Positions 8,533-38,815 of a stretch of 64,000 nucleotides of DNA are shown in pieces. Under the pieces are notes generated by a model, which saw only the letters and a program-made list of their open reading frames with translations, was not told where the DNA came from and did no database searches. Made by a program: the position numbers and the translations under genes. The number at the start of each line of letters is the position of its first letter. Within the stretch, counting starts at the first letter, position 1. The DNA comes from Nanobdellota archaeon (lineage in GTDB: Archaea; Nanobdellota; Nanobdellia; Pacearchaeales; GW2011-AR1), in assembly GCA_028867075.1 (NCBI GenBank), contig JAGWGZ010000001.1, forward strand, positions 26,660 to 90,659, written 5' to 3'.

Positions 8533-8640
8533 ATAAGCAAAATCCACGGTTTTTCTTATCAACTTTTCCCCTACGGTGTCTACGGTTTCGTTCGCTTGAC
8601 TTCCCCATAGGGGAGTTTCCCGCAGGCTTAAATTTTAGAG
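8533..8640 (-). promoter_or_regulatory. long structured 5' leader of tRNA-Thr carrying the conserved AAACCGTAG motifs and a CCCCTATGGGG palindrome
   Basis: In RNA orientation it reads GAAACCGTAGACACCGTAGGGG ... AAAAACCGTGG; the related motif recurs upstream of four other minus-strand tRNAs. Confidence 0.45.
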
Positions 8641-8662
8641 AATTGGTTATTTAAAAGATTTC

Positions 8663-9214
8663 TTATTCTACTTTTAGGGGTTTGATAATTTCAAGAACCC
8701 TTATTTCACAAGCTGATAATGGATAGATCTTTTTCAATTTCAGGCTGAGTTCTTTCTGCAGCTGATTTTTCATAAGTTCATCAAATAATGTCTCAGAACT
8801 TTTGTTCTCAAGTTCTGTTATCATCTCTTCTCTTGCCTTGCTCCTAAGGGCTGTTTTTATTGAGTTGTGGACTTTTCTCCTTGTTATCATGAATAGCTTG
8901 ACTTTCAATTCAGAATCTTTGCATTTTGCCGTAAATGAATCCTCAACATAGTCTGTTCCTCTTCGCACGAGCCTGCCGAGCGATGAATGTACTATTTCCA
9001 TTTTTTTGGGAAATGCTGTAAACTTGTCTTTCTCTCCTGAAGGCTTAACTTTAAGGTAAAGCAGAATATTCTTTCCTTTCAGGAGCCTTGTCATGTCGTA
9101 TTTTATCGTCTTCCCCTCAAGTTCTTCAGGCTCATAAGCATAAAGCTGCGTTTCTTTTCCTATAATCGGAATTTCAACATCAAAAAATCTTTTTCTTTTT
9201 TTTGCCTGTGCCAT
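8663..9214 (-). CDS. rps3ae: 30S ribosomal protein S3Ae (S1e)
   Basis: Sequence pattern of archaeal S3Ae; probable start at MAQAKKRKRFFDVEIP (9214) rather than the upstream ATG at 9241. Confidence 0.8.
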   Translation of the reverse strand: MAQAKKRKRFFDVEIPIIGKETQLYAYEPEELEGKTIKYDMTRLLKGKNILLYLKVKPSGEKDKFTAFPKKMEIVHSSLGRLVRRGTDYVEDSFTAKCKDSELKVKLFMITRRKVHNSIKTALRSKAREEMITELENKSSETLFDELMKNQLQKELSLKLKKIYPLSACEIRVLEIIKPLKVE

Positions 9215-9215
9215 T

Positions 9216-9527
9216 TTATTCCTGTGTTTGTTTTCCTGCACGGATTCCTTTCTTCTGGTACTTGGATTTTCCGCATACGCTGCAGGTATACATTATGTTT
9301 GTCTTTTTAGTTGTTTTAGTTTTTCTTTTGAATTTTGTGACAGCAGGCTTGGAACCCCATTTCCCCTTATTTCCAATTCCCCGTCCAAGGCCCCTTAATC
9401 TTGCTCTCTGTTTTGAACCTCTTGTAAGGGTTCCTCTTTTTGCTCCTGTTGAAACTAACTTAATCTTTTGTTCTGTCTGCTTCTTACAATAAGGGCAATA
9501 TCTTTTTGTCTTCTTTGGGATTTTCAT
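9216..9527 (-). CDS. rpl44e: 50S ribosomal protein L44e
   Basis: Two CxxC zinc-ribbon pairs (CPYCKK, CSVCGK) and basic composition match L44e; immediately upstream of rps3ae. Confidence 0.8.
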   Translation of the reverse strand: MKIPKKTKRYCPYCKKQTEQKIKLVSTGAKRGTLTRGSKQRARLRGLGRGIGNKGKWGSKPAVTKFKRKTKTTKKTNIMYTCSVCGKSKYQKKGIRAGKQTQE

Positions 9528-9567
9528 TTTGTTATTGTTTTGACAAGAAAAATTTGGTTTTTAAATC

Positions 9568-9885
9568 TTAGTATGTCCCCGTTAGAATCTTAAATATTAA
9601 TGCCAATGTTATAACTATTACCCCAACAATATATCCTTCTTTAAAGTCGGGGATATACTTCATATATCTTGCAGTTCCGAAATAAGTTCCGGCACTGATT
9701 AAATAATAAAAAGTCAGTTGTAACAGCAATGAATGATAACCAGATATGGGAAATAAAAAATATTTTATATTATAAATAAGTCCATCTGCTATCAGGCTTA
9801 CTCCTCCAGAACCCAAAAGGCCTAAGAAGAAAAAACCGGTAAAATTTGGAAGAGTTGTAGTTTTCTTCTTGCGATTATTTTTCAT
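9568..9885 (-). CDS. hypothetical small membrane protein
   Basis: Three hydrophobic segments; no motif. Confidence 0.35.
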   Translation of the reverse strand: MKNNRKKKTTTLPNFTGFFFLGLLGSGGVSLIADGLIYNIKYFLFPISGYHSLLLQLTFYYLISAGTYFGTARYMKYIPDFKEGYIVGVIVITLALIFKILTGTY

Positions 9886-9916
9886 ATTATCATCCGGAAT
9901 CTTTTATTTATAAAAA

Positions 9917-9988
9917 TGGTCCCACGCAGAATCGGACTGCGGTCTCGTCCACGTCAAGGACGCGTCTTAGCCACTGGACTATGGGACC
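9917..9988 (-). tRNA. tRNA-Val (anticodon GAC)
   Basis: Reverse complement: acceptor GGTCCCA/TGGGACC plus A73, anticodon stem CGTCC/GGACG with loop TTGACGT. T-loop reads TCCGATT, which is non-canonical. Confidence 0.7.
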
Positions 9989-10073
9989 GCGAGGACACCC
10001 ATCGTTTCCTTCGCTTAATCTTCCTTTAAAAGATTATAAAAATATTTAAATATGAAGCGCATTTAAATCTATC

Positions 10074-10265: not shown

Positions 10266-10305
10266 TCACACTAAGATTTATATATCTCTTTCTCATCATT
10301 TTCCC

Positions 10306-12213: not shown

Positions 12214-15200
12214 ATGAAAAATAAAATGATGCTGAGAATTGAAATTTTATTAGTGGTAGCTGCTGCACTCTCACTCATATTGTTTGCAAATCCTGTTCTT
12301 GCATTCTCTGATTCAACTTTTCAGACCTCTGCATTTAACAATCTTATTTCTCCAACCGCAAGTTCTGGTTTTGACAATTCAATGTGCCAACAAGGGCAGG
12401 ATTTTATCCTTCAGATCTCTCCGACAGGATGCATGCCTGCAGTTGTAAGGAGCGATTTGCTTGAACAGCAGGATGTTCCCGTAATGTGCCCTATTGTAGC
12501 GACGCAGATAAATCCCCTGATAAGCGTAAATTCAATACAGGGAATGACTATTTCTGTTTCAGGAAATGCTTCCCGGTATGTCAATACTGCCGGATTTTAT
12601 CCTGCACAGGCAGCTCTTAACTTGCAGGGGCAGCAGAACACATATCCCCTCCTGAGCAATGTAGGATATGCTGTTATAGACCTGAAGCAGATGCCGAACG
12701 AATCTTCAATGCCTGACTTTGTATCAGGAAATCTGACAGCGACGATAAATTACAATGCGCAGAACATTTTTGGGGGAAATTCCAATTTTTACATTCCTGT
12801 AATGTCTGATTCTGACTGGCAGAATAATTATCCGGATTATAATTTCTGGAATAGTAAAGGCTATCTGAGAGTGACCAGCATACAAAATGACAATGCAAAC
12901 ATAAATGTTTACGGGACAAATCTGAATCAGCTTTCAAGCCTTAATCTCAAGACAGGCCAGACATCAGGCAACATTGCCATTCCTGGATTTGACTTTTGTT
13001 CTGCAACAATGCAGATTAAACTGAACAGTTTGCAGAATGCAAACACAATGGCTAATCTTGAAGTGAACGGGAATCCAGTTACTGTTGAAAAAGGCGGGCA
13101 GTTTATCGATAACAACTGTCAGGTTTCAAACATTTATCAGCAGGGGCTTTCTCAGGATGTGCAGATAGGATGCAATACTGATTCTGGAAATAAAAATTTT
13201 GACCTGAGGGTTGCACCGAAATTAGTCATGAATATTAATGGGCAGACAAGAACAGTCGGCCTTGGCGATTATCTGTACACCATTCCGGGCGATCCTAACG
13301 CAATAACAGACGCGGGAAAATCAGTTTTCCTTGCTTATATCGGAAGCAATAACACGAAAGGCGATCTGAACGGATTGTATGTTTACCTTGTTGCACTCCC
13401 AAAAAATGCGTTGCAGAGTGAGAGCTCTCTTACTAACGATGAGCTTTCTTCAATAGCAAGCTGGGTTCAACATGAAAATCTGGACTTCAAGGTAGGAATG
13501 AGTGGAATTTTGAGCGGCCTGCTTGATGTTGGGAAAGTTTTTGCCGGAACTACTGAATCGATTCTGAGGTATATTATCTCAGGGCAGGATCTTGCTCTTT
13601 TGCCTTATAATCCTTCAATGATAGCATCCAATCAGAATATTCCTCCCTTTCAGCAGGGCGCGGAACAGAGCGTGAGTATTGTGAGTTTTGCAGCAGGAAG
13701 CGATATGCTCCTTCAATCTCCTGTGAATCAATATTACCAGAATGCAACAAAAGATTATCAGGCAATACAAAATAATTACAAAACAGAAACATATTCTTCT
13801 GCAGGAACAGCAACTCTTGGAGAACAAGCCCTATATCAGCAAATGTCTCTTGCTTATAATCTTGGAGAGAAATATACGCTGAATACTCTTTGCAATCAGT
13901 TTGAGCAGCAATACCCGAAATCAACTTATGATACAAGCTTCTGCAGCGGTTTGCAGATTTCAAGCCAAACATCAGCAAGCCAGTTGATTTCCATAAATGG
14001 GCAATCATACCAGATAAATCTTAAAAGCGTTTATACTCCGACGTACAATGATTATGGGGCACAGATTCTTGTTAAGTATAAGGACGGGAGTTCAAAACAA
14101 TTTGATTTGGGTCAGAATGAGATGCAAACCATAAATGATACCTCCGGAGAATTTATGCAACTTGTTTCACTCACTCCAACCACAGCAACAGTTTCCGGGA
14201 ATATAAAAGCGTTCTCTTCCAATACTGTGACTCTGACAGAGAATGTTCCTGCAGTGTTCGGTAATTATGTGCTTACATTACAGAACGTGAATCTCAAACA
14301 ATTTGCAGACATCTCTGTTATTTCAAATCTTAACACTGCCGGCGCCAGGGCAAATGTTTCATTCAATATCAGCATTGAAAAAAGGCTGATACAGCTAAAT
14401 CCGGACAAGGTAAAACAGCAGATTTCAGATCTTAATTCAACAATTTCAACATGGGAGAGCATTGCGAACACGACCGGCACGGTTGTCCAGGCATTGGGAA
14501 CAGTTTGCCAGGATGTTGGAATAGGTCTGACTGTAAAAAATCTTCTTACAAATCTTTTCACAATGACGGGAACTGCAAGACAGATCGTGATGACTGGCGC
14601 GGGGGGATGGAACTCAAAATGCCAGACCCTCATTAATAACGGAAAATATTCCACTCTTGACCAGTGTTTTAATGACAATTCAAAGCAGATAGACTCCGAT
14701 GTAAGTCAGATGAGCCAATTCATGCAGAGCCAGAATGCAGGGATACAGAATCTGCAAAAAGATTATACGCAGCCTGCAAGCAACATTGTCGGGCAGGTTT
14801 TCCAGGGAAGCACAGTCAATACAGACAAGTTCATGAGCAGTTATCTTCCGCAGATTCAGTCATGTCTTGCTAATATGGGAACGGTTGCAAGCTCCTCAGA
14901 CTCAAGCAAGACAATAACATCTTCTCAGGCGCAGAACCTATTGATTTACCAGTATTATACAAATAATTTCTTCAGCCTTTCTGACGCGCGAAATGTTGAA
15001 TTGTACTGCAACATACTGAATTCTAATGACGCAAGCACTTCATTGAAGGCAATAGCACAACAAGGGATGTATTCAACACTTTCTGGAATCCAGCAAAATT
15101 CAAACACTTTCCAGCAACAACAGACTATTGCAGCAAAGCTAAATGTTCCAAGCAGTGTTGTTTTCACGGGCTCTCTGCAGCAGAATTCCAGGCCGATATC

Positions 15201-18200
15201 AATAACAGCCCCACAATCTTTTGGAACAAGTCCGTTTACAAACACAAATCTAAATGGTTTACCAGCCGGTTCTCATTGCGACTCCAATCCCCAATGCCAG
15301 AGCGGAGATTGCGATCCAACATTGAAGGTCTGCATTGGTAATCCTTCAATCGATCCAAGCAGTTATTACTTCATTTACAATGATCAGAGCAGTAGCAATT
15401 CATACCTGGTTGATTATAACGCAGATGGAATTGTTCAGGGAACTTATCTTATTAACACTGCAAGCAATACCCTTTCTCAGATAACAGATGCAAAAGGAAA
15501 TATTCAGAAGAATTATTTTAATTTTGCCATCAAGATTTATTCTGCGGGGAGCTACCAGAATGAATACAAGAACCCGACTGTCCAATATTTTGAAACCTCG
15601 CCATATCAGGGAATGCCTGCAATTGTTCCGTTTGATTTGAAGAACGGGTGGTATGCTGCTGTCCGGCAGGTTCTTCCGACAGGAGGGAATAGCGCGACAC
15701 AGTCATATACAGCGGCAGGACAAGTGCAAAGTTTCTATTTATGCAATGTCGGCCCAAACGGGTTGGAAGATGGAATAAACAACGGAGATGATATTTGCGA
15801 GGGAATAAATCTCGGAACAAACCAGCCATACAATCAGTTCCCCGGAATTACCGATCCGAACCAGGCTTCACAGTTGGTTAACAGTGCAGAGTCTGCCATA
15901 AAACAGGCTGCACAGGCAAGGGCAAACAATCCAAGCGGTTTGACTTATGTCACTATAAATAATCAGAGAATAAAAGTAGGTGCACCCGCAACTTCCACAC
16001 CGCAGATACAGTGCACTGATTTCATGTCTCCGACTGATTGCAACATCCTCTTCAATGCCTGCGACCCTGTTGTCTGTCCCGCAAGCAGATGCGACTTCGG
16101 TGGAGCTTATCATGTTCAGGATGTTGTGCAAAGCGGAATAATAGGAAGCATTGCTTTGTGCCTTCCGAATTATAAAGAAGGAATCGCAGTGCCCGTCTGC
16201 CTTACAGGAATCCAGGCAGGTGTGGAGAATATAATTTCGTACCAAAAAGCATACAGAGATTGCCTTCAGAATAATCTTAACACGGGACAAACGACAGGAA
16301 TCTGCAATGAGATATTAAGTATTTATCTTTGCCAGGATTTGTGGCAGCAGGCGCAACCTCTTGCAAATCTCGCAGTCTCAAAAGTTACGCAGACTGTTTT
16401 AGGGCAGAATAATGCCGGCGGGGGAGAATATATGTCTGTACAAAATGCTTACAATACTGCGCAGCAATCGTTCAACTATATCACTAATTACTATGCTTCC
16501 AGTTCTTCAAAGTCTTTCAGCAGTCTGTCAACACAGAATCTAGGGGCGACTGTCTGCCAGAATTTCCCATCAATCGTATTTCCGAACAGCGCAAACATGC
16601 TCACGCAGCTTTCAGCTATTGATTCTCCACCTCAGTTTTCAGGAAATTTCCAGGAGATTCCTTTCTCAAGCGCGACTGTCCCACCGACTTCGCAATACCA
16701 AGTTTATTATCACATCTATGCGGGGCAGAACTCAGGTGCTTATTACAGTGTTTATTTGCAAAGATCTTCTGGAAGCGGAAGCTCTTACTATCAGGATACT
16801 TCTGCTATACGGCAGACTGATTCCGGTTATATTGACACCGGCAGTTACCAAGACCAGACAAAAGATTTCACGGCGCCTTCCGGATATGACCAGTTGTGCA
16901 TAAATGTCAACGGGCAGGTTGACTGCGGATTCAAGCAGGTGTCAACATCTCTAGTGCCAAATTACATTCAGGCGCAATACCTTGCGGACCAGGCAAATAA
17001 TACACAGATAACAACTGAATCGCAGTGCGTTTCAGGAACAATTGACACTTCAAGTTTGTTACAGGCTTTGAATCCGAATGTCCAGAATGCAGTGCAGAAT
17101 GCTGCAAGCCCGCAACTTTACAATCAGGGAATAACAAGAATCTGCGCTACAGGAAATCCAGGACAGGGAAGCGATCCTTATGCAGGAACGCAGAATTCAC
17201 GATGGATTAAAGTAGGTTCATGCGGAAGCCAGAATCTTTCATGCTGGCTTGATACACAAAGCGTTAAGAATGCCATTAATGCTCCGGACTTAGCGTCTTA
17301 TCTTGCAAACGGAACAACGCAAAATCTGGGAAATGCAACGTTGCAAAGCCTGCAGTCCAGTTATCTTTCTGTTCTATTGAGCCAAAGCGGATATTTGAGC
17401 AATGACCAGTTTACAAGCAGTATACAGGATATTCAGTCGCAGACAGATTTAACGCAGAAAATAAACACAATAAATAATGTAATAAATAAAGTGTTCTATA
17501 ATAATCAGAAAGCATATCTGCTTTTCCTTAGGGGACTGGCTTATGGACAGCTGGCTCTGAAATCTTATTCAGCAAGTATTCCGGCCAGTGGTGCAGGCCA
17601 ATTTACAAGTTATCAGGATTGCATGTCTAAGATTGCAAGCAACTCTGTCTGCAGTGCAATGTTCCCTGTTTCTTCTGGACAGGGGAATTCACAGGGGGCT
17701 CCAACAGGAACGCTCCTGCCTGTTGGTTCTGCTTGCACAAAGGATTCTGATTGCCAGAGCGGGAGTTGTGTTGACACCGGAGATGCAACACTTGGAAAGA
17801 GATGCGCCGCTTCAACAAACATTCCCAACGGGGTTACTCTCTCAAGCCTTTCAAATGCAATGTCTTCACCGGAACTTAACTGTCAGTGCGGAAATAACTG
17901 CGAGCAGTATGCGCAATCCTTAATCAATGCCGCAAACACATATCATGTTAATCTTGTTCTCTTGCTTTCAATCATGGTCCAAGAATCTCATTGCAATGTT
18001 AATGCACAAACTTCTCCTGATTCTTCAGGATATTCTTCAATTGGATTAATGCAAATTTATAACAGCCCAAGTAACCTTCAGCAATATTGCGTTGGAAAAA
18101 TAAGCGGGATAAGCAGTGCAAGTGATATAACCGGTGCTGTAAATTATGATAAGAACATCCAGTGTGGCGCTTCTGTCTTGAAGAGCAAATATGCAGAGAG

Positions 18201-20250
18201 GCCTGCTCCGCAAACCTATACCTGTGATGGTGTCACAAAAACTTATTCAACTCCTTCTGATGCGGCCGTAAGAGGGTACATTGGATACGGGTGCACAAAT
18301 AATCCAAGCATAGACGTCCCGAGTTATGTTGATGATGTTAATCAGAGGTATAATCTCATAATGAGCATAATAAATCCGCAGCAGAGTACAGCAACGGCAT
18401 TGTATCAGACAGCTGCATATTCCCCTGATTTTGTTTCCCCCGTATTTAATTATAATAGTCTTTATTATGAATTTTCAGGAGGAACCTGGCAGTGGTCAAA
18501 TGATGGAAAAAAGTGGAATAATCTTGTGAACTCAGGAAGTTTAAGCGGAAGCAATTCAGTCATTGTCCAAAATTTAAATGGTAGATCATATGAGCAAGGA
18601 TTAAAAATATTAATTGATAGCGAACTTTCAAGTACTGGTGTTAAGGTCCCACTTATAAATTTGGCTCTCCCTATAGGTTATCCAATGCTTTCAACCCAAT
18701 ATGTTTCAATGGATCATAATGGACAGTTTAATTTCCTTTATTCCAAAGATAGAAGTTTCCCATTTTATTTCAAATTCTTAAATGGTAAGTGGATGTGGGA
18801 GACTAGTTCTAATTTAAATGGATGGATGGACACCAGTATCTCAAGCACAACTGTTGAGAGCGCGGGTGCCCCCCCAATGCTGACAAGTTTCTTAAGTAAT
18901 CTTGACCTTTACCAAGGTGCAGAAGCTTTGTTCAACAGCGGAGGAGATGATACTATCCCTGTTTCAGTTCCAACCTCCGCTTTTGATTATACCCCTTCCC
19001 TTCCTTCAACACCCATAACACCAAGTTCACAAACCCAAACCTCTTCAACAGCCCAGACACCTTCGACGTCTTCTATATCCCAATCACAGATATCCTCAGA
19101 TGATATAGGTTCTTATAACAATTTTGCATCTTTATTTAGTCAGTATTCACAGTCTAATCTTCCAAATGTGGTGATTGCACCTGCTCCAGGGAAATCTTTT
19201 TCTTCTGAAAGCGTTACAGGTCCAAGTACAAACGATATTTATTGGACGCAAAATGATTTTGAGGCTTTATTGATTTCAATTGCGCAGCAAAATGAATGGG
19301 GGCAGTTTGACACAAGTGGCAGCTGGTTGATGGGATATAGAGCTGGAAATCCTCACTATCAAACTGCAGATATCCAGATACGGGCCACCTCACTTATTTT
19401 AGAATCAGCAATACAAGGGGAAGGTAATTCTCTTGCGGACCAAGCAGGAAAGATTGTATCTTATGACTCTTGCAAACAATATTATAGAGTTGATACCACC
19501 AAGCAAATTTCATGCATATTGAGTATTTATCACACTGGAAGTTATTATACAGGGTTTTGGTTTACCGGAATAGGTGCAAATAAAGACGGAAACAATTATG
19601 CATCAAATGTCCTTGGAAACTGGACGTTATGGAAAAATTACCTAAGTTTGCAGCAAGGATCATCATCACAAACTCCCTCTTCTTCTAGTTCATCTGCAAA
19701 TTTAAATCCCACTTCTGCTCTTCCAGTCTCTCAATATAGTCCTTTCTCTGGCGTTTTTGCAAATTATGCGCAGGTTAATCTCCCTAATTCTGTTCTTGTG
19801 CCTGGTTCAATAATTGGTCCAAGTTCTAATGATGTCTATTGGAGTCAGAATGATTTCAAAGCTCTACTGGTAGCAATTGCGCAAATGAATAATTTTGGAA
19901 TTAATAGTAATGGTGATGGTATGATGGGTTATAGTCTGAGTTCTAGTTCAAGCCTTGATAAATATAATCAAATTAACATCGTCTCTTCAGCTTTAAAATC
20001 CGCAATTGAAGGAACAGGAAGTTCGCAGCCAGACCAAGCAGGGAATCTTGTTTCATATAATACCTGTAATCAATATTATAGAATAAATATGAATAATCAA
20101 CTGACATGTATCTTAAATATCTATAAGACGGGAATGAGTTCTGACAGCAGCGGGGTAGCTTATGCAAATAACGTCTTGAGTCTCGCAAAGATATGGGATG
20201 ATTACTTTAGCAGTAGTGGATCTAGTAATCTCGACCAACTTGCACTATAA
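12214..20250 (+). CDS. giant (2678 aa) secreted N/Q/S/T-rich surface protein with Cys-rich modules and an SLT/lytic-transglycosylase-like domain
   Basis: Signal peptide MKNKMMLRIEILLVVAAALSLILFANPVLA. Repeated C..(S/D)..CQSG.C motifs. Segment VQESHC...GYSSIGLMQIYN matches the E-S...GLMQ catalytic signature of the SLT lysozyme-like fold. C-terminal ~170-aa tandem duplication. Confidence 0.8.
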   Translation: MKNKMMLRIEILLVVAAALSLILFANPVLAFSDSTFQTSAFNNLISPTASSGFDNSMCQQGQDFILQISPTGCMPAVVRSDLLEQQDVPVMCPIVATQINPLISVNSIQGMTISVSGNASRYVNTAGFYPAQAALNLQGQQNTYPLLSNVGYAVIDLKQMPNESSMPDFVSGNLTATINYNAQNIFGGNSNFYIPVMSDSDWQNNYPDYNFWNSKGYLRVTSIQNDNANINVYGTNLNQLSSLNLKTGQTSGNIAIPGFDFCSATMQIKLNSLQNANTMANLEVNGNPVTVEKGGQFIDNNCQVSNIYQQGLSQDVQIGCNTDSGNKNFDLRVAPKLVMNINGQTRTVGLGDYLYTIPGDPNAITDAGKSVFLAYIGSNNTKGDLNGLYVYLVALPKNALQSESSLTNDELSSIASWVQHENLDFKVGMSGILSGLLDVGKVFAGTTESILRYIISGQDLALLPYNPSMIASNQNIPPFQQGAEQSVSIVSFAAGSDMLLQSPVNQYYQNATKDYQAIQNNYKTETYSSAGTATLGEQALYQQMSLAYNLGEKYTLNTLCNQFEQQYPKSTYDTSFCSGLQISSQTSASQLISINGQSYQINLKSVYTPTYNDYGAQILVKYKDGSSKQFDLGQNEMQTINDTSGEFMQLVSLTPTTATVSGNIKAFSSNTVTLTENVPAVFGNYVLTLQNVNLKQFADISVISNLNTAGARANVSFNISIEKRLIQLNPDKVKQQISDLNSTISTWESIANTTGTVVQALGTVCQDVGIGLTVKNLLTNLFTMTGTARQIVMTGAGGWNSKCQTLINNGKYSTLDQCFNDNSKQIDSDVSQMSQFMQSQNAGIQNLQKDYTQPASNIVGQVFQGSTVNTDKFMSSYLPQIQSCLANMGTVASSSDSSKTITSSQAQNLLIYQYYTNNFFSLSDARNVELYCNILNSNDASTSLKAIAQQGMYSTLSGIQQNSNTFQQQQTIAAKLNVPSSVVFTGSLQQNSRPISITAPQSFGTSPFTNTNLNGLPAGSHCDSNPQCQSGDCDPTLKVCIGNPSIDPSSYYFIYNDQSSSNSYLVDYNADGIVQGTYLINTASNTLSQITDAKGNIQKNYFNFAIKIYSAGSYQNEYKNPTVQYFETSPYQGMPAIVPFDLKNGWYAAVRQVLPTGGNSATQSYTAAGQVQSFYLCNVGPNGLEDGINNGDDICEGINLGTNQPYNQFPGITDPNQASQLVNSAESAIKQAAQARANNPSGLTYVTINNQRIKVGAPATSTPQIQCTDFMSPTDCNILFNACDPVVCPASRCDFGGAYHVQDVVQSGIIGSIALCLPNYKEGIAVPVCLTGIQAGVENIISYQKAYRDCLQNNLNTGQTTGICNEILSIYLCQDLWQQAQPLANLAVSKVTQTVLGQNNAGGGEYMSVQNAYNTAQQSFNYITNYYASSSSKSFSSLSTQNLGATVCQNFPSIVFPNSANMLTQLSAIDSPPQFSGNFQEIPFSSATVPPTSQYQVYYHIYAGQNSGAYYSVYLQRSSGSGSSYYQDTSAIRQTDSGYIDTGSYQDQTKDFTAPSGYDQLCINVNGQVDCGFKQVSTSLVPNYIQAQYLADQANNTQITTESQCVSGTIDTSSLLQALNPNVQNAVQNAASPQLYNQGITRICATGNPGQGSDPYAGTQNSRWIKVGSCGSQNLSCWLDTQSVKNAINAPDLASYLANGTTQNLGNATLQSLQSSYLSVLLSQSGYLSNDQFTSSIQDIQSQTDLTQKINTINNVINKVFYNNQKAYLLFLRGLAYGQLALKSYSASIPASGAGQFTSYQDCMSKIASNSVCSAMFPVSSGQGNSQGAPTGTLLPVGSACTKDSDCQSGSCVDTGDATLGKRCAASTNIPNGVTLSSLSNAMSSPELNCQCGNNCEQYAQSLINAANTYHVNLVLLLSIMVQESHCNVNAQTSPDSSGYSSIGLMQIYNSPSNLQQYCVGKISGISSASDITGAVNYDKNIQCGASVLKSKYAERPAPQTYTCDGVTKTYSTPSDAAVRGYIGYGCTNNPSIDVPSYVDDVNQRYNLIMSIINPQQSTATALYQTAAYSPDFVSPVFNYNSLYYEFSGGTWQWSNDGKKWNNLVNSGSLSGSNSVIVQNLNGRSYEQGLKILIDSELSSTGVKVPLINLALPIGYPMLSTQYVSMDHNGQFNFLYSKDRSFPFYFKFLNGKWMWETSSNLNGWMDTSISSTTVESAGAPPMLTSFLSNLDLYQGAEALFNSGGDDTIPVSVPTSAFDYTPSLPSTPITPSSQTQTSSTAQTPSTSSISQSQISSDDIGSYNNFASLFSQYSQSNLPNVVIAPAPGKSFSSESVTGPSTNDIYWTQNDFEALLISIAQQNEWGQFDTSGSWLMGYRAGNPHYQTADIQIRATSLILESAIQGEGNSLADQAGKIVSYDSCKQYYRVDTTKQISCILSIYHTGSYYTGFWFTGIGANKDGNNYASNVLGNWTLWKNYLSLQQGSSSQTPSSSSSSANLNPTSALPVSQYSPFSGVFANYAQVNLPNSVLVPGSIIGPSSNDVYWSQNDFKALLVAIAQMNNFGINSNGDGMMGYSLSSSSSLDKYNQINIVSSALKSAIEGTGSSQPDQAGNLVSYNTCNQYYRINMNNQLTCILNIYKTGMSSDSSGVAYANNVLSLAKIWDDYFSSSGSSNLDQLAL

Positions 20251-20256
20251 TTCTAA

Positions 20257-20427
20257 TGCCCCCGACAGGATTTGAACCTGCGACCCTTAGCTTTCTCCTT
20301 TTGCACGCGGAGGTGCGGAACCGTTTGGGTTCTGTTGCAACTTCCTGTTGGGATGCAGGAGGTGCGGAAACCCGCAGGTGGTTCTGGTTAGAAGGCTAAT
20401 GCTCTATCCAGGCTGAGCTACAGGGGC
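20257..20427 (-). tRNA. tRNA-Arg (anticodon UCU) with a ~96-nt intron after position 37
   Basis: Exons 20389-20427 and 20257-20292 fold into acceptor GCCCCTG/CGGGGGC plus A73, D-arm GCTC/GAGC, anticodon stem TTAGC/GCTAA with loop CTTCTA|A, T-arm GCAGG-TTCAAAT-CCTGT. The intron (20293-20388) interrupts at canonical 37/38. Confidence 0.65.
20293..20388 (-). other. tRNA-Arg(UCU) intron
   Basis: Intervening sequence ACCAGAACCACCTGCGGGTTTCCGCACCTCC...GGTTCCGCACCTCCGCGTGCAAAAGGAGAA with an internal direct repeat TTCCGCACCTCC. Confidence 0.55.
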
Positions 20428-20548
20428 TCATTTTATTCGCCCTTAGTTTTCCTTCTTCCATTTTTACTAAGGGGCTCACTCGCTTCGCTCGTTCACCCTA
20501 CGCTCCTTCGTCGCATAGGGCTACTATAAGTTATGTAAAAGAATGAAT

Positions 20549-20743
20549 TTAAAACTTTTCTATTGAATCTTCCAGCCCGTTTATCCTTTCAACATCCTTC
20601 ATGAAACTCTCCAGGTCATCAACCTTGATTACCCGCCCTTCCTGGTTTTTTATCCTGTAATTTCCGTTTATCTTCTCAACACGATAAATCTGACCGTATT
20701 TATCCCGATATGTCCCGCCTTTCCATTTTTTCAAATTGGCCAT
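20549..20743 (-). CDS. hypothetical small protein
   Basis: 64-aa ORF immediately downstream of rnz; no motif. Confidence 0.3.
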   Translation of the reverse strand: MANLKKWKGGTYRDKYGQIYRVEKINGNYRIKNQEGRVIKVDDLESFMKDVERINGLEDSIEKF

Positions 20744-24594: not shown

Positions 24595-24647
24595 CTTTAA
24601 CAAGTTATAAAAATAGTTCTGGTTTTTTTGTTTGTTAGTGAATTGTC

Positions 24648-27868: not shown

Positions 27869-27941
27869 TGGCTGCACCAAGAATTGAACTTGGGACCCCT
27901 GCCTCATGAGAGCAGTGCTCTGCCAACTGAGCTATGCAGCC
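27869..27941 (-). tRNA. tRNA-Met/Ile2 (anticodon CAU), elongator-like
   Basis: Reverse complement: acceptor GGCTGCA/TGCAGCC plus A73; anticodon stem CTGCT/GGCAG with loop CTCATGA; T-arm CCAAG-TTCAATT-CTTGG. Confidence 0.75.
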
Positions 27942-28047
27942 GTGTGAAACCTCCTGCGGGTTTCTACAATTTCCAGCGACCCTGCAATTGCAGTGTATAT
28001 TAAAATTAAAAATAAATCCTTTAAAAATCTTTAAAATTTACAGAAAT

Positions 28048-28291: not shown

Positions 28292-29200
28292 CTATTCTAT
28301 CTTTTCCAGACCCCTCATGCTTTTTAATGCAGCCATCAGATTGTCAAATTTCTTTACCGGCTCGCCCAGGGCCCATATCTTGTATTGAAGTTTGAGCTCA
28401 TGGGATTTTTTGTAAGAGCTGATTATGTCCTGCTCTGATATCTTTCTTTTATTATAGGCTATAATGAGATATTCTTCATGGTCTTTAACCCGGAATATTA
28501 TCCTGTTTATGCTTATTTCTTCTATGTCTATGATCTCAATTTTCTTTTTTGAGAGAAGTTCCTTGACTTTATTGAAGAATTTATTATCCTGACTTTTCTT
28601 TTTTGTCGGCTTCTGCGGCCTTTTTATCGGTTTTCTAGGTTTCCTTTCTTGTTCTTCACTTTCAACTGATTCTATCTCTTCGACAGGAGATTTAATTTCA
28701 GTCATTATTTCGGTTATTGCCTCTCTTGCAGGCTCCTGCGCAGTTTCCTCGACATTTAGCTGAATTTCAACTTTTTTAAATTGCGGAATAAAATCCGATT
28801 CCTGCGAGGTGAAGAATCTCCACAGTACCTCTCCGTCTTTTTCAAAAGGGACCGCAAAATCTTTTATGTCCCTCATTGCCACGCGTATTGCAGGTTCAAG
28901 TTCTTTGTCAGTCAGGAATCTCTTTTCTTTCAGGAGCATGAATGCATCTTTTTCCTTGTTTTTCAGGTATTGCGAAAAATTTTCTAACAGAGGTTCCTGA
29001 CCCGGGATAAAATAGAGCGGCGAGCTTCCGACTCTTAGGTTGGAAATCCTGAGTTCCTTATTTGAAAGAAGCTCTGAGAGAAATGCAGAAGCAAAAAGTA
29101 TGCTGAGCCCTGTTTCTTTTGCAATGAAGACAGGCAGACTTGGGCCGTGCATCTTTATCAGATACAATATTTTTTCCCTCATCAATGACGCGTCCACCAT
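28292..29200 (-). CDS. hypothetical protein with basic/acidic low-complexity C-terminal region
   Basis: 302-aa ORF; an N-terminal segment could be a winged helix. No confident family. Confidence 0.35.
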   Translation of the reverse strand: MVDASLMREKILYLIKMHGPSLPVFIAKETGLSILFASAFLSELLSNKELRISNLRVGSSPLYFIPGQEPLLENFSQYLKNKEKDAFMLLKEKRFLTDKELEPAIRVAMRDIKDFAVPFEKDGEVLWRFFTSQESDFIPQFKKVEIQLNVEETAQEPAREAITEIMTEIKSPVEEIESVESEEQERKPRKPIKRPQKPTKKKSQDNKFFNKVKELLSKKKIEIIDIEEISINRIIFRVKDHEEYLIIAYNKRKISEQDIISSYKKSHELKLQYKIWALGEPVKKFDNLMAALKSMRGLEKIE

Positions 29201-29245
29201 TACGCTGGAAAATATTTAAAAGTTATAAAGATTGTTATGTCGCGA

Positions 29246-29264
29246 GACAACCTACGGTTTTCTT
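29246..29264 (-). promoter_or_regulatory. 19-nt element GACAACCTACGGTTTTCTT, identical to the tRNA-Ala 5' leader motif at 38791-38809
   Basis: Exact 19/19 identity between the two loci; lies in the endA to downstream-ORF intergenic region within an inverted repeat GCGAGACAA...TTGTCTCGC. Confidence 0.5.
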
Positions 29265-29345
29265 TAACTCGCAACCTTGCTCGTTGCGGATTTTGCAATT
29301 TTGTCTCGCAAAATTGCTCGGCTTAATTTTCCCTCAATGTAGCCT

Positions 29346-29885
29346 TTACGGCTTAACCCAATTTACTTCATAATAGGTAATGTCTCCTTCTTCATCCACA
29401 ATTGCTATCAGAAGTTTCTTCTTCGTTGAATGAGCAACACGGTTCTTTGCCGAGAATTCCTGCCAAGTGAATGTTTTTGATTCATAATCTGTGAAAGCGA
29501 CCCACTTTGAATGTTTGTCTCCCATCTTTGCCCCTTTTTCATAAATTCGGAATTCTGCGCCGAATTTAAGCGCTGTTTTTACAACGTATCCTTTTTCGCG
29601 AAGGTCCCTGAATACCGGATATTTCAATTGGATTTTTTTGTCAGATTTCTTGAATCGCTTCATCAGCCCGTCAAAAGAAATTTTCTTTCCCGAGGATAAT
29701 ACTTCTATTTTTCCTTTCTCAACAAGGAAGAGCGCTTCCGAGGGGGAATAGATAACCTTGCCCTCTTTTTTCTCGCCGAAGCTGCTTTTTTCATGAAGAG
29801 AGAATGCTTCAGATGAATTGCTGGAAACCTGCTCTCCGACAAGATAGGCCTGTATTCTTTCCATTTTTGAATAAGACAACAGCAA
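29346..29885 (-). CDS. endA: tRNA-splicing endonuclease catalytic subunit EndA
   Basis: 179 aa; conserved segments SPSEALFLVEKGKIEV, YPVFRDLREKGYVVKTALKFGAEFRIYEKG and the catalytic His region HSKWVA match archaeal EndA. Confidence 0.8.
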   Translation of the reverse strand: MLLSYSKMERIQAYLVGEQVSSNSSEAFSLHEKSSFGEKKEGKVIYSPSEALFLVEKGKIEVLSSGKKISFDGLMKRFKKSDKKIQLKYPVFRDLREKGYVVKTALKFGAEFRIYEKGAKMGDKHSKWVAFTDYESKTFTWQEFSAKNRVAHSTKKKLLIAIVDEEGDITYYEVNWVKP

Positions 29886-34604: not shown

Positions 34605-34617
34605 TTCTCATATTCAG

Positions 34618-36726: not shown

Positions 36727-36959
36727 GATTTAATAATGAGATAAAACTTCTTGAAGAATTAGCAAAATTAGAACATCAACAATGGGCTCATTGGACTACA
36801 TATCTACTAAATAATCTTACAAAAGAAAATATTAAGAAATGGACAAAGCAGATTAAGACACCCTACCCAAAACTTTCTGAAAAGGAAAAAGAATCGGACA
36901 GGGAGTGGGGTAAGAAAGTGCTGGAAATAATTAAACAAAAGAATAATCTTGGGCTATAA
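36723..36959 (+). CDS. hypothetical small protein
   Basis: 78-aa ORF overlapping the kinase stop by 4 nt; no motif. Confidence 0.3.
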   Translation: MRFNNEIKLLEELAKLEHQQWAHWTTYLLNNLTKENIKKWTKQIKTPYPKLSEKEKESDREWGKKVLEIIKQKNNLGL

Positions 36960-36962
36960 CTT

Positions 36963-37970
36963 ATGAAAATTGCGTTCTTTGAGATGAAGGAGAAATGGGA
37001 AATAGAATACATGAAAAAACATCTGAAGAATCACAGGCTATTCTTCTTTAGCGGAGAACTCAACAAGAATAATGCAAAAAATTTCAGGGATTTTGACATA
37101 ATCTCCATTTTCATTTACTCAAATATAACTCCGGACGTTATTTCTGAATTAAAAAAGACCAAGGCAATTATAACGCGTTCCACAGGCTTCGACCATGTTG
37201 ACATTAAATCATGCGACCGGAATAAAATAAAAGTTTACAATGTTCCAAGATACGGCAGCAACACCGTTGCGGAATACGCCTTTGCCTTGGTGCTTGCACT
37301 GGCAAGGAAGATAATAAGGAGCAATGAACGAGTCAGAAACCTGGATTTTAGTCTTGATGGATTAAGGGGGATGGACATCAAAGGGAAAACTCTTGGTATT
37401 GTGGGACTTGGCGAAATAGGGGCATGCGTTGCAGAAATTGCGAGAGGATTCGGGATGAATATTCTTGTTTCAACTAAGATAAAAGATCCCAAAACCGCGA
37501 AGTCTCTTGGATTCAGGTATGTCAATTTCAACTATCTTCTGAAGAATTCCGATATAATAACATTCCATGTTCCGCTCCTGCCCTCAACAAAACACATGCT
37601 TAATTCCGGAAACATCAATCTTGTGAAAAAAGGGGCTTTGCTGATAAACACCTCGCGAGGGGAAGTTATTGAAACGGAAACGGTAATAAAAGCATTGAAT
37701 AGAGGAATAATCTCGGGAGCTGCTATGGACGTTCTTGAGGGCGAGGAACTGATAAAAGACGAGAGAGAATTATTATTTAAGCAACACTCGCATGAGGAAC
37801 TTAAAGCTGCATTGGAGGAAAGTGTTCTGGCAGAACATGAGAATGTGATAATCACCCCACACAATGCCTTTAACACACAAGAGGCACTGCAGAGGATTCT
37901 TGATGTGACAATTCAGGATGTAAGATTTGCAATTCAAAACAAAAAGGAGAATACTGTGAAATGCGAGTGA
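36963..37970 (+). CDS. D-isomer-specific 2-hydroxyacid dehydrogenase (NAD-binding)
   Basis: GKTLGIVGLGEIG Rossmann motif, catalytic R...E...H layout (SRG, HNAFNT); 335 aa. Confidence 0.75.
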   Translation: MKIAFFEMKEKWEIEYMKKHLKNHRLFFFSGELNKNNAKNFRDFDIISIFIYSNITPDVISELKKTKAIITRSTGFDHVDIKSCDRNKIKVYNVPRYGSNTVAEYAFALVLALARKIIRSNERVRNLDFSLDGLRGMDIKGKTLGIVGLGEIGACVAEIARGFGMNILVSTKIKDPKTAKSLGFRYVNFNYLLKNSDIITFHVPLLPSTKHMLNSGNINLVKKGALLINTSRGEVIETETVIKALNRGIISGAAMDVLEGEELIKDERELLFKQHSHEELKAALEESVLAEHENVIITPHNAFNTQEALQRILDVTIQDVRFAIQNKKENTVKCE

Positions 37971-38713
37971 ATCTCGGGAAAATAATGAAAAACGGAAAAG
38001 CAATGTTTCTTGCTTACGACCACGGATTGGAACACGGGCCGATAGAATTCAATGACAAAGACGCAAACCCGGAGTATATAATTGATATTGCGAAGAAAGG
38101 AAAATACAATGCATTGATTTTTCAGAAGGGAATCGCGGAGAAATACAATGAGAAAATAAAAAAGTCGAAAATTCCTTTGATAATAAAACTCAATGGAAAA
38201 ACAAATTTGTTTCAGGGCGAGCCTGTTTCGAGGCAGATTTGCAGCGTCAAAGAAGCTCTGGACTTGGGAGCGAAAGCTGTGGGTTATACGATTTATATCG
38301 GAAGCAGATATGAATCTGTTATGCTGAAAGAATTTGATTCAATCGAGGAAGAGGCACATGCAAAGGGTATTCCGGTAATTGCATGGATTTATCCGCGTGG
38401 AAAAAGCGTTGAGAAAAAGCCAGGAGGAGAATTGATGGCTTATGCTGCGCGAACGGGTCTGGAAATTGGAGCAGATATAATAAAAATAAAATACAACGGA
38501 AATGTAAAAGACTTGAAATGGGCAGTTAAAGTCGCCGGAAAGACACAAGTCATGATTGCTGGCGGCGTCCATGAAGACGAGAAGATTTTTCTGAAGCAGG
38601 TTAAGGAGATAATCAACGCTGGCGCAGCAGGCCTCGCAGTGGGAAGAAATATTTGGCAGTCTGGAAATCCGGTAGAACTCTCAGGTAAAATAAAAAGAAT
38701 GATTTGGGATTAA
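37961..38713 (+). CDS. class I fructose-bisphosphate aldolase, archaeal DhnA type
   Basis: 250 aa; N-terminal LAYDHGLEHGP pattern and length of archaeal FbaB/DhnA aldolases; sits in the glycolysis cluster. Confidence 0.65.
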   Translation: MRVNLGKIMKNGKAMFLAYDHGLEHGPIEFNDKDANPEYIIDIAKKGKYNALIFQKGIAEKYNEKIKKSKIPLIIKLNGKTNLFQGEPVSRQICSVKEALDLGAKAVGYTIYIGSRYESVMLKEFDSIEEEAHAKGIPVIAWIYPRGKSVEKKPGGELMAYAARTGLEIGADIIKIKYNGNVKDLKWAVKVAGKTQVMIAGGVHEDEKIFLKQVKEIINAGAAGLAVGRNIWQSGNPVELSGKIKRMIWD

Positions 38714-38784
38714 TGGACTTGCCGAGAATCGGACTCGGATCTTCCGGCTGCGAACCGAATATAATGCCATTATACTACAAGCCC
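38714..38784 (-). tRNA. tRNA-Ala (anticodon CGC) with G3-U70
   Basis: Reverse complement: acceptor GGGCTTG/CAAGTCC (G3-U70 Ala identity pair) plus A73; anticodon stem TTCGG/CCGGA with loop TTCGCAG; T-arm CCGAG-TCCGATT-CTCGG (non-canonical loop); weak D-stem. Confidence 0.65.
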
Positions 38785-38815
38785 ATGTACGACAACCTAC
38801 GGTTTTCTTACACTA
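38785..38815 (-). promoter_or_regulatory. tRNA-Ala 5' leader hairpin motif GAAAACCGTAGGTTGTCG, 6 nt upstream of the mature 5' end
   Basis: Motif shared with leaders of tRNA-Val, tRNA-Met, tRNA-Thr, tRNA-Arg(UCU) and the 29246 element; AT-rich TATA-like box about 60-80 nt further upstream. Confidence 0.5.

Follow-up and report, generated by a model that had tools for sequence, protein, structure and literature searches.

Why do five tRNA genes of one archaeal contig carry related sequences in front of their mature 5′ ends? The initial annotation of the 64-kb stretch of DNA analysed here (the window) described a hairpin-forming motif in the 5′ leaders of tRNA-Ala, tRNA-Met, tRNA-Val, tRNA-Thr and tRNA-Arg(UCU), and read it as a possible lineage-specific signal for tRNA processing or quality control. 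All of the strings quoted for this motif could be located on the minus strand, each of them upstream of the tRNA to which it had been assigned. As far as sequence comparison can tell, there is about an even chance that the motif forms the core of a "mobile leader" element, structured and MITE-like and here called E, that would be co-transcribed with the gene and then removed.

According to GlyRS neighbourhoods, the closest relatives are Woesearchaeota/Pacearchaeota/Nanoarchaeota MAGs. The host of the window is a Woesearchaeota/Pacearchaeota-type DPANN archaeon, and the genes of its clade are leaderless. TATA boxes of the clade end 23 nt 5′ of tRNA +1 (60 of 105 within 21–25 nt) and 21 nt 5′ of ATG (220 cases versus a background of about 12), and no clear SD usage was found in the clade. 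Five of the ten window tRNAs depart from this fixed promoter distance and have leaders of 35–100 nt, so that the TATA boxes are not uniformly located 50–90 nt upstream as had been proposed. That these five tRNAs, unlike their neighbours, have long structured leaders was correctly recognised: canonical TATA boxes lie 21 nt 5′ of the start of the module or leader, which is probably transcribed, and not 23 nt 5′ of the tRNA. The plus-strand tRNAs and tRNA-Arg(UCG) indeed lack the motif, and their TATA boxes end 21–24 nt upstream (35 nt for Leu-TAG). The minus-strand location of the motif-bearing tRNAs is incidental. Nanoarchaeum equitans, a member of the same phylum as defined by GTDB, lacks RNase P and has leaderless tRNA genes with the promoter 26–27 nt upstream (PMC10100707). 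In the window clade, the TATA box of most tRNAs is likewise at a fixed position, −24 to −31, whereas about half of the window tRNAs, with their 35–100 nt leaders, go against this rule.

E is 40–62 nt long, and the annotated motif is its conserved inner stem. It starts with ATCAG, followed in some copies by a hairpin (P1), then by the purine box AAGGGAAAG(U/A)U and an irregular hairpin of 10–13 bp (P2). The base of P2 is located 0–1 nt from tRNA +1 or ATG; about half of the copies directly adjoin the gene, and the others are separated from it by 1 nt. What had been described as a 5–6 bp stem-loop set 5–7 nt off the tRNA is a stem of 10–13 bp reaching tRNA position −1/−2. E starts 21 nt after TATA in L050, L130, L146 and L175, and this spacing is based on only these four clean loci. 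The window contains the following features:

38786..38824, minus strand: best-kept module, directly 5′ of tRNA-Ala(CGC) (covariance model 57–61 bits, E about 1e-10)
38817–38824, minus strand: purine box of this module, AGGGAAAG
38786–38812, minus strand: hairpin P2 of this module, with the core GAAAACCGTAGGTTGTC at 38791–38807
38714..38784, minus strand: tRNA-Ala(CGC)
27942..27985, minus strand: tRNA-Met leader, Met-type subfamily (GCTGGAAATTGTAGAAACCCGCAGGAGGTTTCACAC)
27946–27964, minus strand: hairpin GAAACC-CGCAGGA-GGTTTC of this leader, its stem ending 1 nt from tRNA +1
27869..27941, minus strand: tRNA-Met(CAT)
9989..10029, minus strand: diverged module 5′ of tRNA-Val(GAC), AAAGGAAGATTAAGCGAAGGAAACGATGGGTGTCCTCGC (nhmmer E=0.005)
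9917..9988, minus strand: tRNA-Val(GAC)
8533..8629, minus strand: tRNA-Thr(UGU) leader of about 97 nt with two tandem, partly decayed modules
8534–8575, minus strand: proximal copy of this leader (GGGGAAAAGTTGATAAGAAAAACCGTGGATTTTGCTTAT), the distal copy lying at about 8576–8629
8460..8532, minus strand: tRNA-Thr(UGU)
20428..20525, minus strand: tRNA-Arg(UCU) leader
20257..20427, minus strand: tRNA-Arg(UCU) with a 96-nt intron (about 20293–20388)
29240..29335, minus strand: module copy away from tRNAs, following endA and preceding the TATA box of ORF 28292–29200 (E=3e-4)

The idea of one core common to all five tRNAs holds in part. Only the Ala module, in which a single unpaired T (38785) separates P2 from tRNA +1, fits the consensus well. 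The Val and Thr copies are diverged, and Met represents a subfamily of its own, with a conserved counterpart in the orthologous L004 leader. The stem of the Val module (GCGA-AGGAAAC/GTGTCCT-CGC) is flush with tRNA +1. At tRNA-Arg(UCU), a gene that was detected only by Rfam or by ARAGORN with introns allowed, the cited motif is not immediately upstream of the tRNA but 70–90 nt away. It is part of a leader with two P1-like hairpins (CCCTATGCG..GCGTAGGG and CCCCTTAG..CTAAGGG) and GCGA(A/G) repeats, from which P2 is missing. This leader is a decayed copy of a module; the orthologous L004 locus has kept the module intact, whereas L001 and L002 lack it. The intron of the same gene, which is conserved in L003, harbours two antisense module-like units, one being GGAGGTGCGGAAACCCGCAGGTGGTT (about 20355–20383, plus strand) and the other lying upstream of GGAGGTGCGGAAACCCGCAGGTGGTT. 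The copy near endA consists of a box-like GAGGGAAAATTAAGCCGAG, internal hairpins and an exact core (29246–29262). One of the two exact 17-mers of the window lies between endA and the next ORF and not at a tRNA, and the module as a whole is not tRNA-specific.

The motif exceeds random frequency. AAACCGTRG has four matches in the window (0.39 expected), none of them on the plus strand, and no shuffle out of 100 reached four; GAAAACCGTAGGTTGTC occurs exactly twice against 0.13 expected. A chance origin of the motif in the window is excluded. Matches of the unfiltered covariance model at Ala (E=8e-11), proximal Thr (E=0.39) and Val (E=0.89) each end 0–2 nt from the tRNA 5′ end. E matched no Rfam family and no paper that we found: Rfam returned only tRNAs in the window and 32 related loci, scans of the archaeal and bacterial modules at permissive E-values gave only noise, and our literature search found no published description of the module. 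Membership in an Rfam ribozyme, riboswitch, sRNA, C/D or H/ACA family was rejected, as no covariance model matched near its gathering score.

In 75 distinct copies, 86.9% of the P2 cells are paired, compared to 76.9% in shuffles and 42–58% in slid controls, and 76 cells show double changes compared to 20; none of 500 shuffles attained the observed values. In the outer stem, G.U outnumbers A.C by 32:12 among archaeal-type copies and by 70:1 among the bacterial ones, an excess that identifies the sense RNA as the strand that folds. P2 is kept by compensatory changes, which supports a selected RNA structure. This bears on whether the module might be a DNA-level promoter variant or transcription-factor palindrome, with the purine box as BRE, the variable part as TATA and a start at tRNA +1. 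The box and variable region do lie at about −40 to −24 from +1, and TTTGATAAA of one subfamily is TATA-like. However, an archaeal BRE/TATA promoter was rejected because the sequence at the expected position is variable, frequently GC-rich (TTGACGGTCAA, AGTACGGTAG) and covaries with the 3′ arm. Moreover, covariation of the arms with a G.U bias is a mark of RNA structure and not of a protein-binding site, and canonical TATA boxes are present 21 nt upstream of the module, which leaves this explanation extremely improbable. Other structures were also rejected. A BHB substrate of EndA, with 3-nt bulges on opposite strands around a 4-bp helix, does not fit, as irregularities in P2 are limited to single A.G mismatches or 1-nt bulges and the junction with the acceptor stem has 0–1 unpaired nt. 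Inspection of the 75 copies revealed one isolated A.G mismatch instead of the tandem sheared G.A pairs and 3-nt bulge of a K-turn/L7Ae site. As to C/D box (RUGAUGA/CUGA) and H/ACA RNAs, the subfamilies do not share a conserved TGATAA, and an ACA was seen in just two of the window leaders.

E is multi-copy, with several copies per contig, and divides into subfamilies. At least 15 protein genes have the module in front of their start codon, and it directly adjoins the ATG of housekeeping genes. Antisense copies are found at tRNA 3′ ends in eight cases, at 0–6 nt in L003, L004, L007, L013, L038, L077 and L186 and at 10 nt in L082, and within tRNA introns in at least six. In-frame copies are located inside ORFs in L109, L174 and L183, and other copies are intergenic and remote from any gene start. 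This distribution does not support a signal for tRNA processing or quality control. The genes 3′ of the module encode S3Ae, S27ae, RpoP, TFB, MCM, PolB, Rad50, Mre11, Cdc48, FtsY and tRNAs, which could point to a cis-regulatory leader of a growth regulon, in which a protein or the 30S subunit on the purine box and P2 would act on information-processing genes and tRNAs by controlling translation or stability. In line with this, several subfamilies have a GGAGG-like box (GGAGGTG for the copies in the Arg intron, CGGAGGG for bacteria), and a folded P2 would put it 8–10 nt from AUG. On the other hand, DPANN genomes consist mostly of such genes in any case, the clade lacks clear SD usage, and tRNAs, which are untranslated, are over-represented about tenfold relative to ORFs among the module neighbours. 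Since the antisense, intronic and in-ORF copies also remain unexplained and orthologous copies are gained and lost, we consider such a regulon quite unlikely.

Gain and loss can be followed at orthologous tRNA genes. Those for tRNA-Arg include filled and empty sites with a common conserved promoter, and the tRNA-Met module is present in the window and L004 and absent from L001 and L002. The absence of the module from the tRNA-Arg and tRNA-Met genes of these closest relatives, and its decay at tRNA-Arg(UCU), again speak against a tRNA processing signal. The tRNA-Arg(UCU) gene has survived the loss of P2, which indicates that P2 is dispensable there. Target duplications of 14–35 nt flank some copies, and none were seen at copies inserted at transcription starts. 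Among the archaeal copies, duplications of 14–21 nt occur in L003, L076 and L174; in the latter, the repeat flanking the in-ORF copy (about 21 nt) encodes IDNKKIS twice. Duplicated tRNA ends flank insertions in L003, L076, L110 and L128. Like a MITE, E is short, noncoding, multi-copy and polymorphic for presence and absence. What counts against mobility, besides the lack of duplications at transcription starts, is that the archaeal form has no terminal inverted repeats and that no transposase, reverse transcriptase or integrase was found beside any copy in the loci examined or anywhere in the window. Rickettsia palindromic elements likewise comprise subfamilies and differ in presence between related genomes through gain and loss; they are found inserted in frame within protein genes and next to RNA genes. 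They and other MITE/REP-type repeats resemble E in being short, noncoding, hairpin-forming and multi-copy. In contrast to MITE/REP repeats, archaeal E has neither TIRs nor a short fixed TSD, is placed precisely at transcription starts and tRNA termini, shows RNA-type, strand-specific covariation and has a core common to Archaea and Bacteria. From this we infer that E is a MITE/REP-like mobile or duplicative element with the sense RNA as its functional form.

The position of P2 allows another interpretation, in which an endonuclease would recognise the hairpin that adjoins +1 and so generate the mature 5′ terminus. RNase Z acting on the minihelix, or a hairpin-specific nuclease, would then permit leadered genes in a clade with leaderless transcription, without a classical single-stranded leader. 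The window encodes an RNase Z (20743–21663) and EndA (29346–29885). The base of P2 is indeed always 0–1 nt from tRNA +1 or ATG, its roughly 12 bp equal the length of an acceptor/T-arm stack, a 12-pair model matches most copies from end to end, and the core is strongly conserved. The relatives also contain dicistronic tRNA-Arg/tRNA-Cys genes with 3-nt spacers, which require some 5′ trimming. A precedent is given by the tRNA-like t-elements of Haloferax volcanii, which are substrates of RNase P and tRNase Z; at the one located upstream of 5S rRNA, cleavage by tRNase Z makes the 5S 5′ end (PMC4326828). Like them, E is structured and directly 5′ of a mature RNA, its 3′ boundary being the mature 5′ end; however, it has no cloverleaf and no acceptor stem formed from its two ends, only a terminal hairpin whose processing is predicted. 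Furthermore, RNase Z requires a discriminator, whereas the junction between P2 and the acceptor stem has no unpaired nucleotide in about half of the cases. With its 3–5 nt, the loop does not resemble a T-loop, and there is a long 5′ extension ahead of P2. A cassette dedicated to maturation also leaves the antisense copies at tRNA 3′ ends and in introns, the in-ORF copies and the start-remote copies unexplained, P2 is gone from the tRNA-Arg(UCU) leader of the window, and the closest relatives produce the same tRNAs without the module. We therefore regard it as unlikely.

E is not lineage-specific, as a near-identical core occurs in bacteria: that of the window Ala module is identical to L079 at 33 of 35 positions. 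The bacterial core is found within elements of about 190 nt on high-GC contigs, many of them gut-metagenomic. Both flanks of these units consist of the same locus-specific terminator hairpin, duplicated (22–35 nt), and their ends are TIR-like (CAGNCTGTCGAAAA). Such duplicated-hairpin flanks are documented for an IS30-type element (Calcutt 1999, as cited in PMC7648426). The bacterial units share TIR-like ends and the duplicated terminator hairpin with IS30-type elements such as IS1630, which target and duplicate inverted repeats, but no transposase gene was found with them, and the archaeal copies at gene starts lack duplications. The resemblance of the bacterial units to sRNA units with hairpin terminators would also suit an independent small RNA gene that uses the downstream tRNA, as a sense or antisense cloverleaf, for 3′-end processing. 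A promoter lies 21 nt 5′ of E, and in L157, where E fills exactly the spacer between two tRNAs, tRNA-processing enzymes would free an RNA of about 62 nt. Copies before ATGs, in ORFs and in introns do not fit a small RNA gene, which we think has only a slim chance of being correct.

Under the mobile leader reading, E would survive in this leaderless clade mainly after insertion at one exact site, with the transcription start on one side and the first base of the gene on the other. A normal promoter would then start transcription at the first nucleotide of E, 21 nt after TATA, and E would form the entire 5′ leader with P2 flush with tRNA +1 or AUG. For the five window tRNAs, the leader would be cut away at the P2/tRNA junction, with RNase P as the default enzyme. 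RNase P RNP proteins are present in all DPANN genomes surveyed and HARP in none (PMC6380272); no RNase P subunit was seen in the window, which is one part of the genome. Less likely, RNase Z could read the 12-bp P2 as an acceptor/T-arm minihelix and cut after the 0–1 unpaired nt. In mRNAs, the same cut might restore a leaderless AUG, or the SD-like purine box, brought to 8–10 nt from AUG by the folded P2, might aid initiation.

A further point against the mobile reading is the precise placement of E, 0–1 nt from +1 and 21 nt after TATA, which random insertion followed by selection would not easily produce and which may reflect active targeting or a real function. Yeast Ty3, a eukaryotic LTR retrotransposon guided by TFIIIB, inserts at most one or two bases from the point where transcription of tRNA genes starts. 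Its placement at tRNA starts resembles that of E, as an analogy without homology. A bolder version, to which we give little credence, is that E is a cross-domain RNA-structured mobile leader, targeted to transcription starts and tRNA termini, that ensures its own removal because RNase Z, or another universal nuclease, would take its terminal 12-bp hairpin for a minihelix. If so, it would provide an RNase P-independent route to mature 5′ ends, restore leaderless mRNAs and be functionally an intron-like element for RNA 5′ ends. Tandem copies are present in L050, L184 (identical 61-nt units), L160 and the Thr leader of the window. That the tandem Thr arrangement is kept in the orthologous L160 leader and that the core is near-invariant in two domains also count against the mobile reading, as both argue for constraint on E beyond selfish persistence.

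All leader strings quoted in the initial annotation were found in the window, and the motif occurs above chance. AAACCGTRG is present four times, always on the minus strand, compared to 0.39 copies expected, and none of 100 shuffles reached four. The 17-mer GAAAACCGTAGGTTGTC has two exact copies (0.13 expected). The motif had been assigned to tRNA leaders; it is indeed located at tRNAs, but one exact copy of GAAAACCGTAGGTTGTC (29246-29262) lies at no tRNA and is found after endA, upstream of the TATA box of the next gene. As had also been described, the motif is absent from the plus-strand tRNAs and from tRNA-Arg(UCG), where the TATA box ends 21-24 nt before +1 (35 nt for tRNA-Leu(UAG)). The proposed hairpin core is real, but represents only the inner part of a longer hairpin, P2, of which the variable outer part reaches to 0-1 nt from the tRNA +1.

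Comparison with related loci from other genomes and metagenomes (L-numbers; among others the Arg and Met copies of L004, L011 Met, L050 Leu and the TFB gene of L028) extended the motif to a module of 40-62 nt. In this module an optional ATCAG with hairpin P1 is followed by a purine box, AAGGGAAAG(U/A)U, and by the long irregular hairpin P2, and the 3′ strand of P1 ends in the GGG of the purine box. P1 is present in a subset of the copies, and an ungapped detector did not separate real from permuted upstream regions. With a covariance model derived from six real copies, 96 copies from 92 sources were recovered at E<0.01. In 75 distinct copies, 86.9% of the P2 cells were paired, compared to 76.9% after shuffling and 42-58% when the partner was slid. 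Two-sided changes were observed in 76 cells (20 expected), which was reached by none of 500 shuffles, and each of the four outer pairs of P2 showed four or five pair types. The inner seven P2 positions were fixed by the search pattern and are uninformative on covariation; in copies found independently of it, the inner stem does covary (GAGAACC/GGTTCTC, GGAAACC/GGTGTCC and GGAAATC/GATTTCC). In the outer stem, G.U exceeded A.C by 32:12 in low-GC copies and by 70:1 in high-GC copies, counts that are phylogenetically non-independent. This excess indicates that the folded molecule is the sense RNA.

Within the window, the filter-free covariance scores were E=8e-11 for the tRNA-Ala copy and E=3e-4 for the non-tRNA copy ending at 29262. 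The proximal tRNA-Thr copy (E=0.39) and the tRNA-Val copy (E=0.89) scored weakly; each of them ends at the tRNA 5′ end. The tRNA-Met module forms its own subfamily, which is conserved with L004, and the tRNA-Arg(UCU) leader has kept P1-like stems and lost P2. In total, 10 tRNA genes were found in the window using ARAGORN and Rfam. The other genes are housekeeping genes, encoding aminoacyl-tRNA synthetases, glycolysis enzymes, SRP54/FtsY, TFB, TFE, S3Ae, S8e, L44e, GatDE/GatCAB, RNase Z and an α4-type EndA. Neither an RNase P subunit nor a transposase or reverse transcriptase was seen within the 64-kb window. The nearest GlyRS neighbourhoods all belong to Woesearchaeota, Pacearchaeota or 'Nanoarchaeota' MAGs, with amino-acid identities of at most 76%. 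Protein-coding genes next to tRNAs or module-bearing regions include the following:

12214-20250, plus strand: ORF of 2678 aa with an SLT lytic-transglycosylase domain as sole Pfam match, ending 6 nt from the 3′ end of the convergent tRNA-Arg(UCU)
20743-21663, same strand as tRNA-Arg(UCU): RNase Z gene, directly upstream of the module-bearing tRNA-Arg leader
29346-29885, same strand as the 29262 copy: EndA gene, directly upstream of the region bearing this copy

The linkage of RNase Z and tRNA-Arg is syntenic in relatives. The closeness of the RNase Z and EndA genes to module-bearing regions may be coincidental.

TATA-to-tRNA distances were determined for 165 tRNAs from about 60 related loci (L001-L061) and the window, using the nearest strict TATA 8-mer. 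Such an 8-mer was present for 105 tRNAs, in 60 of which it ended 21-25 nt before +1; the most frequent distance was 23 nt. In ORFs of 80 aa or more, the TATA-end-to-ATG distances peaked sharply at 21 nt and nowhere else (220 cases, background about 12), and no clear Shine-Dalgarno signal was found in the related loci. This TATA geometry is that of the tRNA genes of Nanoarchaeum equitans, in which promoters 26-27 nt upstream result in leaderless tRNAs (PMC10100707). Given the fixed TATA distances and the lack of a clear Shine-Dalgarno signal, the clade appears to be essentially leaderless, for mRNAs and tRNAs alike, and the tRNAs for Ala, Met, Val, Thr and Arg(UCU) are exceptions. In the spacer between tRNA-Leu(CAG) and tRNA-Leu(UAG) (24596-24647), the TATA box is 35 nt away from the second tRNA, compared to 24 nt in L001 and L002, which leaves about 11 extra leader nucleotides in the window.

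In L050, L130, L146 and L175, the distance from the end of the TATA box to the A of ATCAG is exactly 21 nt, which places the first base of the module where the ATG of a leaderless gene would be. Since the base of P2 lies 0-1 nt from the tRNA +1 or the ATG, the module fills exactly the interval from the old start site to the gene. By applying the 21-nt rule to the window, we infer the following leaders.

Predicted leaders of the five minus-strand tRNAs of the window
tRNA-Ala: about 35 nt, first bases at the purine box
tRNA-Val: about 35 nt, first bases at the purine box
tRNA-Met: about 33 nt, first bases GGAAATTG
tRNA-Thr: about 97 nt, first bases GCCTGCGGG
tRNA-Arg(UCU): about 97 nt, first bases AGTAGCCC

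Furthermore, we scanned metagenomes with the pattern AGGGAAAG-N8-13-AAACC-N2-5-GGTTGTC, which matched at least 120 stretches. Contexts were counted for 70 distinct low-GC copies.

Context of the 70 distinct low-GC copies among the matches listed
Immediately before an ORF ATG: 15
Immediately upstream of a tRNA, in sense orientation: 9
Within a tRNA intron, in antisense orientation: 4
At the 3′ end of a tRNA, in antisense orientation: 2
Tandem pair, upstream copy: 2
Other positions: 38

Among the ORFs with the module at the ATG, we found those encoding S3Ae, S27ae, RpoP, MCM, PolB, Rad50, Mre11, Cdc48, FtsY-like and TrmB-like proteins, and the TFB gene of L028 carries it at this position too. 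In L157, the module is the exact spacer between tRNA-Arg and tRNA-Cys. Five more antisense copies are located 3-6 nt from tRNA 3′ ends in the GlyRS loci L003, L004, L007, L013 and L038, and in L077 and L186 an antisense copy is immediately adjacent to the complement of the discriminator base. Three in-frame copies are part of ORFs (L109, L174 and L183). The window tRNA-Arg(UCU) has a 96-nt intron (20293-20388) that is conserved in L003. In antisense, this intron comprises two units resembling the module, with a GGAGGTG box, which are likewise conserved in L003; along the tRNA sense, it has two occurrences of the anti-SD-like CCGCACCUCC. This spread of contexts shows that tRNAs are strongly over-represented, yet that the module is neither tRNA-specific nor strand-specific. 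The initial observation is partly confirmed, and there is only partial support for reading it as a lineage-specific tRNA processing signal. Random insertion does not account for the exact placement at start sites and, on either strand, at tRNA termini.

The presence of the module is polymorphic. The tRNA-Arg(UCU) promoter (AAAAGYTTTAAATY) can be aligned in four genomes (L001, L002, L004 and that of the window); it is followed by the tRNA at 25-26 nt in L001 and L002, whereas in L004 and the window 75-100 nt lie between the promoter spacer and +1. At the tRNA-Met site, the module is present in the window and L004 and missing from L001 and L002. For S3Ae, the module is found in L083 and L160 and is absent in the window. 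Tandem modules are present in L050, L160 and at the window tRNA-Thr, as well as in L184, where the tandem units are identical and 61 nt long. Some insertions are flanked by direct target duplications, which comprise 15 nt from the tRNA-Met 5′ end in L003, 17-21 nt from tRNA 3′ ends in L076, L110 and L128, and about 21 nt encoding IDNKKIS twice in L174. When TIR-like ends were searched for away from modules, no autonomous element was found. The data fit a structured, multi-copy, MITE- or REP-like element, presumably mobile, of which the selected form is a sense RNA. The tandem leader of tRNA-Thr is kept between the window and L160, which counts against the element being purely selfish. In this leaderless clade, it would persist chiefly when it forms the whole 5′ leader.

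Two further features were observed at tRNA genes. In L003 (5048-5273; compared to L004 5466-5640 and window 20257-20560), tRNA-Arg(UCU) is flipped with respect to the upstream RNase Z gene and the module-like sequence, and it has gained a canonical promoter at its other side. In both L004 (about 8350-8406) and L028 (about 1700-1766), the full tRNA-Leu gene is immediately preceded by 14-16 nt copied from the tRNA-Leu(UAG) 5′ end and, after them, about 40 conserved nucleotides (..GCCAATATTCTYTGGCT..). This partial copy could be a duplication scar or a non-canonical arrangement.

The module would be transcribed as a leader and subsequently removed. As the five window tRNAs are retained and relatives have tRNA pairs 3 nt apart, some 5′-processing activity must exist. 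Such a pair, tRNA-Arg(UCU) and tRNA-Cys, is found in L032 (8656-8805) and L041 (9468-9619), which implies a dicistronic precursor and a 5′ trimming activity at least there. Our default proposal is that RNase P would remove the leader, because, according to one survey, RNase P RNP subunits are present in every DPANN genome it covered and HARP is absent from them all (PMC6380272). Alternatively, RNase Z might cut P2 as a minihelix, for which the t-element of Haloferax is a precedent (PMC4326828). The sequence of the junction where the cut would fall is not conserved, which speaks against self-cleavage at this point. If the proposal of transcribed and removed leaders is true, DPANN genomes with a leaderless organisation carry elements that turn leaderless tRNA and housekeeping genes into leadered ones. 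This would raise the question of how minimal cells strip leaders, and would bear on the distribution and necessity of RNase P in Nanoarchaeota. In practice, the elements will mislead the annotation of promoters, UTRs and tRNAs in DPANN MAGs.

Rfam searches with window, archaeal and bacterial copies, at gathering and permissive thresholds, returned only tRNAs and no module family, and no match to the exact module sequence was found in the papers searched. The element therefore appears to be undescribed. By eye, the aligned copies lack the defining nucleotides or bulges of C/D box, H/ACA, K-turn and BHB motifs and of hammerhead, pistol and twister cores. A promoter, with the purine box as BRE and the variable part as TATA, was rejected in view of the covariation and of the TATA boxes located upstream. 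The purine box resembles a Shine-Dalgarno sequence; the clade itself has no clear Shine-Dalgarno usage. The window trailers contain no complement of the purine box, and a leader-trailer processing stem was rejected. As AACCGUAGG and helix 45 of 16S rRNA have different pairing partners, their likeness was regarded as a coincidence.

More than 40 of the scan hits are located on high-GC contigs (0.5-0.66), many of them from human gut metagenomes, and these contigs carry bacterial genes, for example those for class II aldolase, RlmB and DinB. The bacterial core, cggAGGGAAAGATAGTGTGAAAGAAAACCGT(C)AGG(G)TTGTCTTTCGCG, and the window tRNA-Ala leader agree at 33 of 35 positions, with an additional 2-nt indel (L079). 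Covariation is seen in the outer stem of the bacterial core, for instance as ATCGGAAAG/CTTTCCGAT in L154, and the bacterial unit folds far better than shuffles (z = −9.6). The near-identical RNA core points to a universal interacting factor or to inter-domain transfer of a tiny element, neither of which has previously been described for this sequence. In one bacterial setting, the core belongs to a structured unit that is about 190 nt long and has TIR-like ends (CAGNCTGTCGAAAA). To either side of this unit lies the same terminator hairpin of 22-35 nt, which is specific to the locus (seven loci: L085, L089, L090, L133, L141, L156 and L173). This duplication is the pattern attributed to the IS30-type IS1630, which, according to the mention of Calcutt 1999 in PMC7648426, targets and duplicates inverted repeats. 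The bacterial unit had no match among PLSDB plasmids, and nothing specific was found in the literature on a terminator-duplicating MITE. In the other setting, tandem units of about 148 nt, each comprising the module, a copy of a tRNA 3′ end and its terminator, are located downstream of tRNA operons, at tRNA 3′ ends by predicted prophage borders (L079, L134, L177, L107 and the IMG/VR loci L194-L203). These units look like repeated integration scars of a mini-element.

Finally, in a 'group A' subfamily, a short variable region (AGGGAAAGTTYCAAGAAAACC..) precedes conserved sequence (..AACGNCGAG..). This subfamily was found in L170 (1909-1939 minus, 8823-8853 plus), L187 (86-116 minus, 4261-4291 plus) and about 12 other contigs. 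It forms outward-facing inverted pairs, 4-7 kb apart in L170 and L187, and is located beside a transposase-like ORF fragment (..NNVIERFHSTF).
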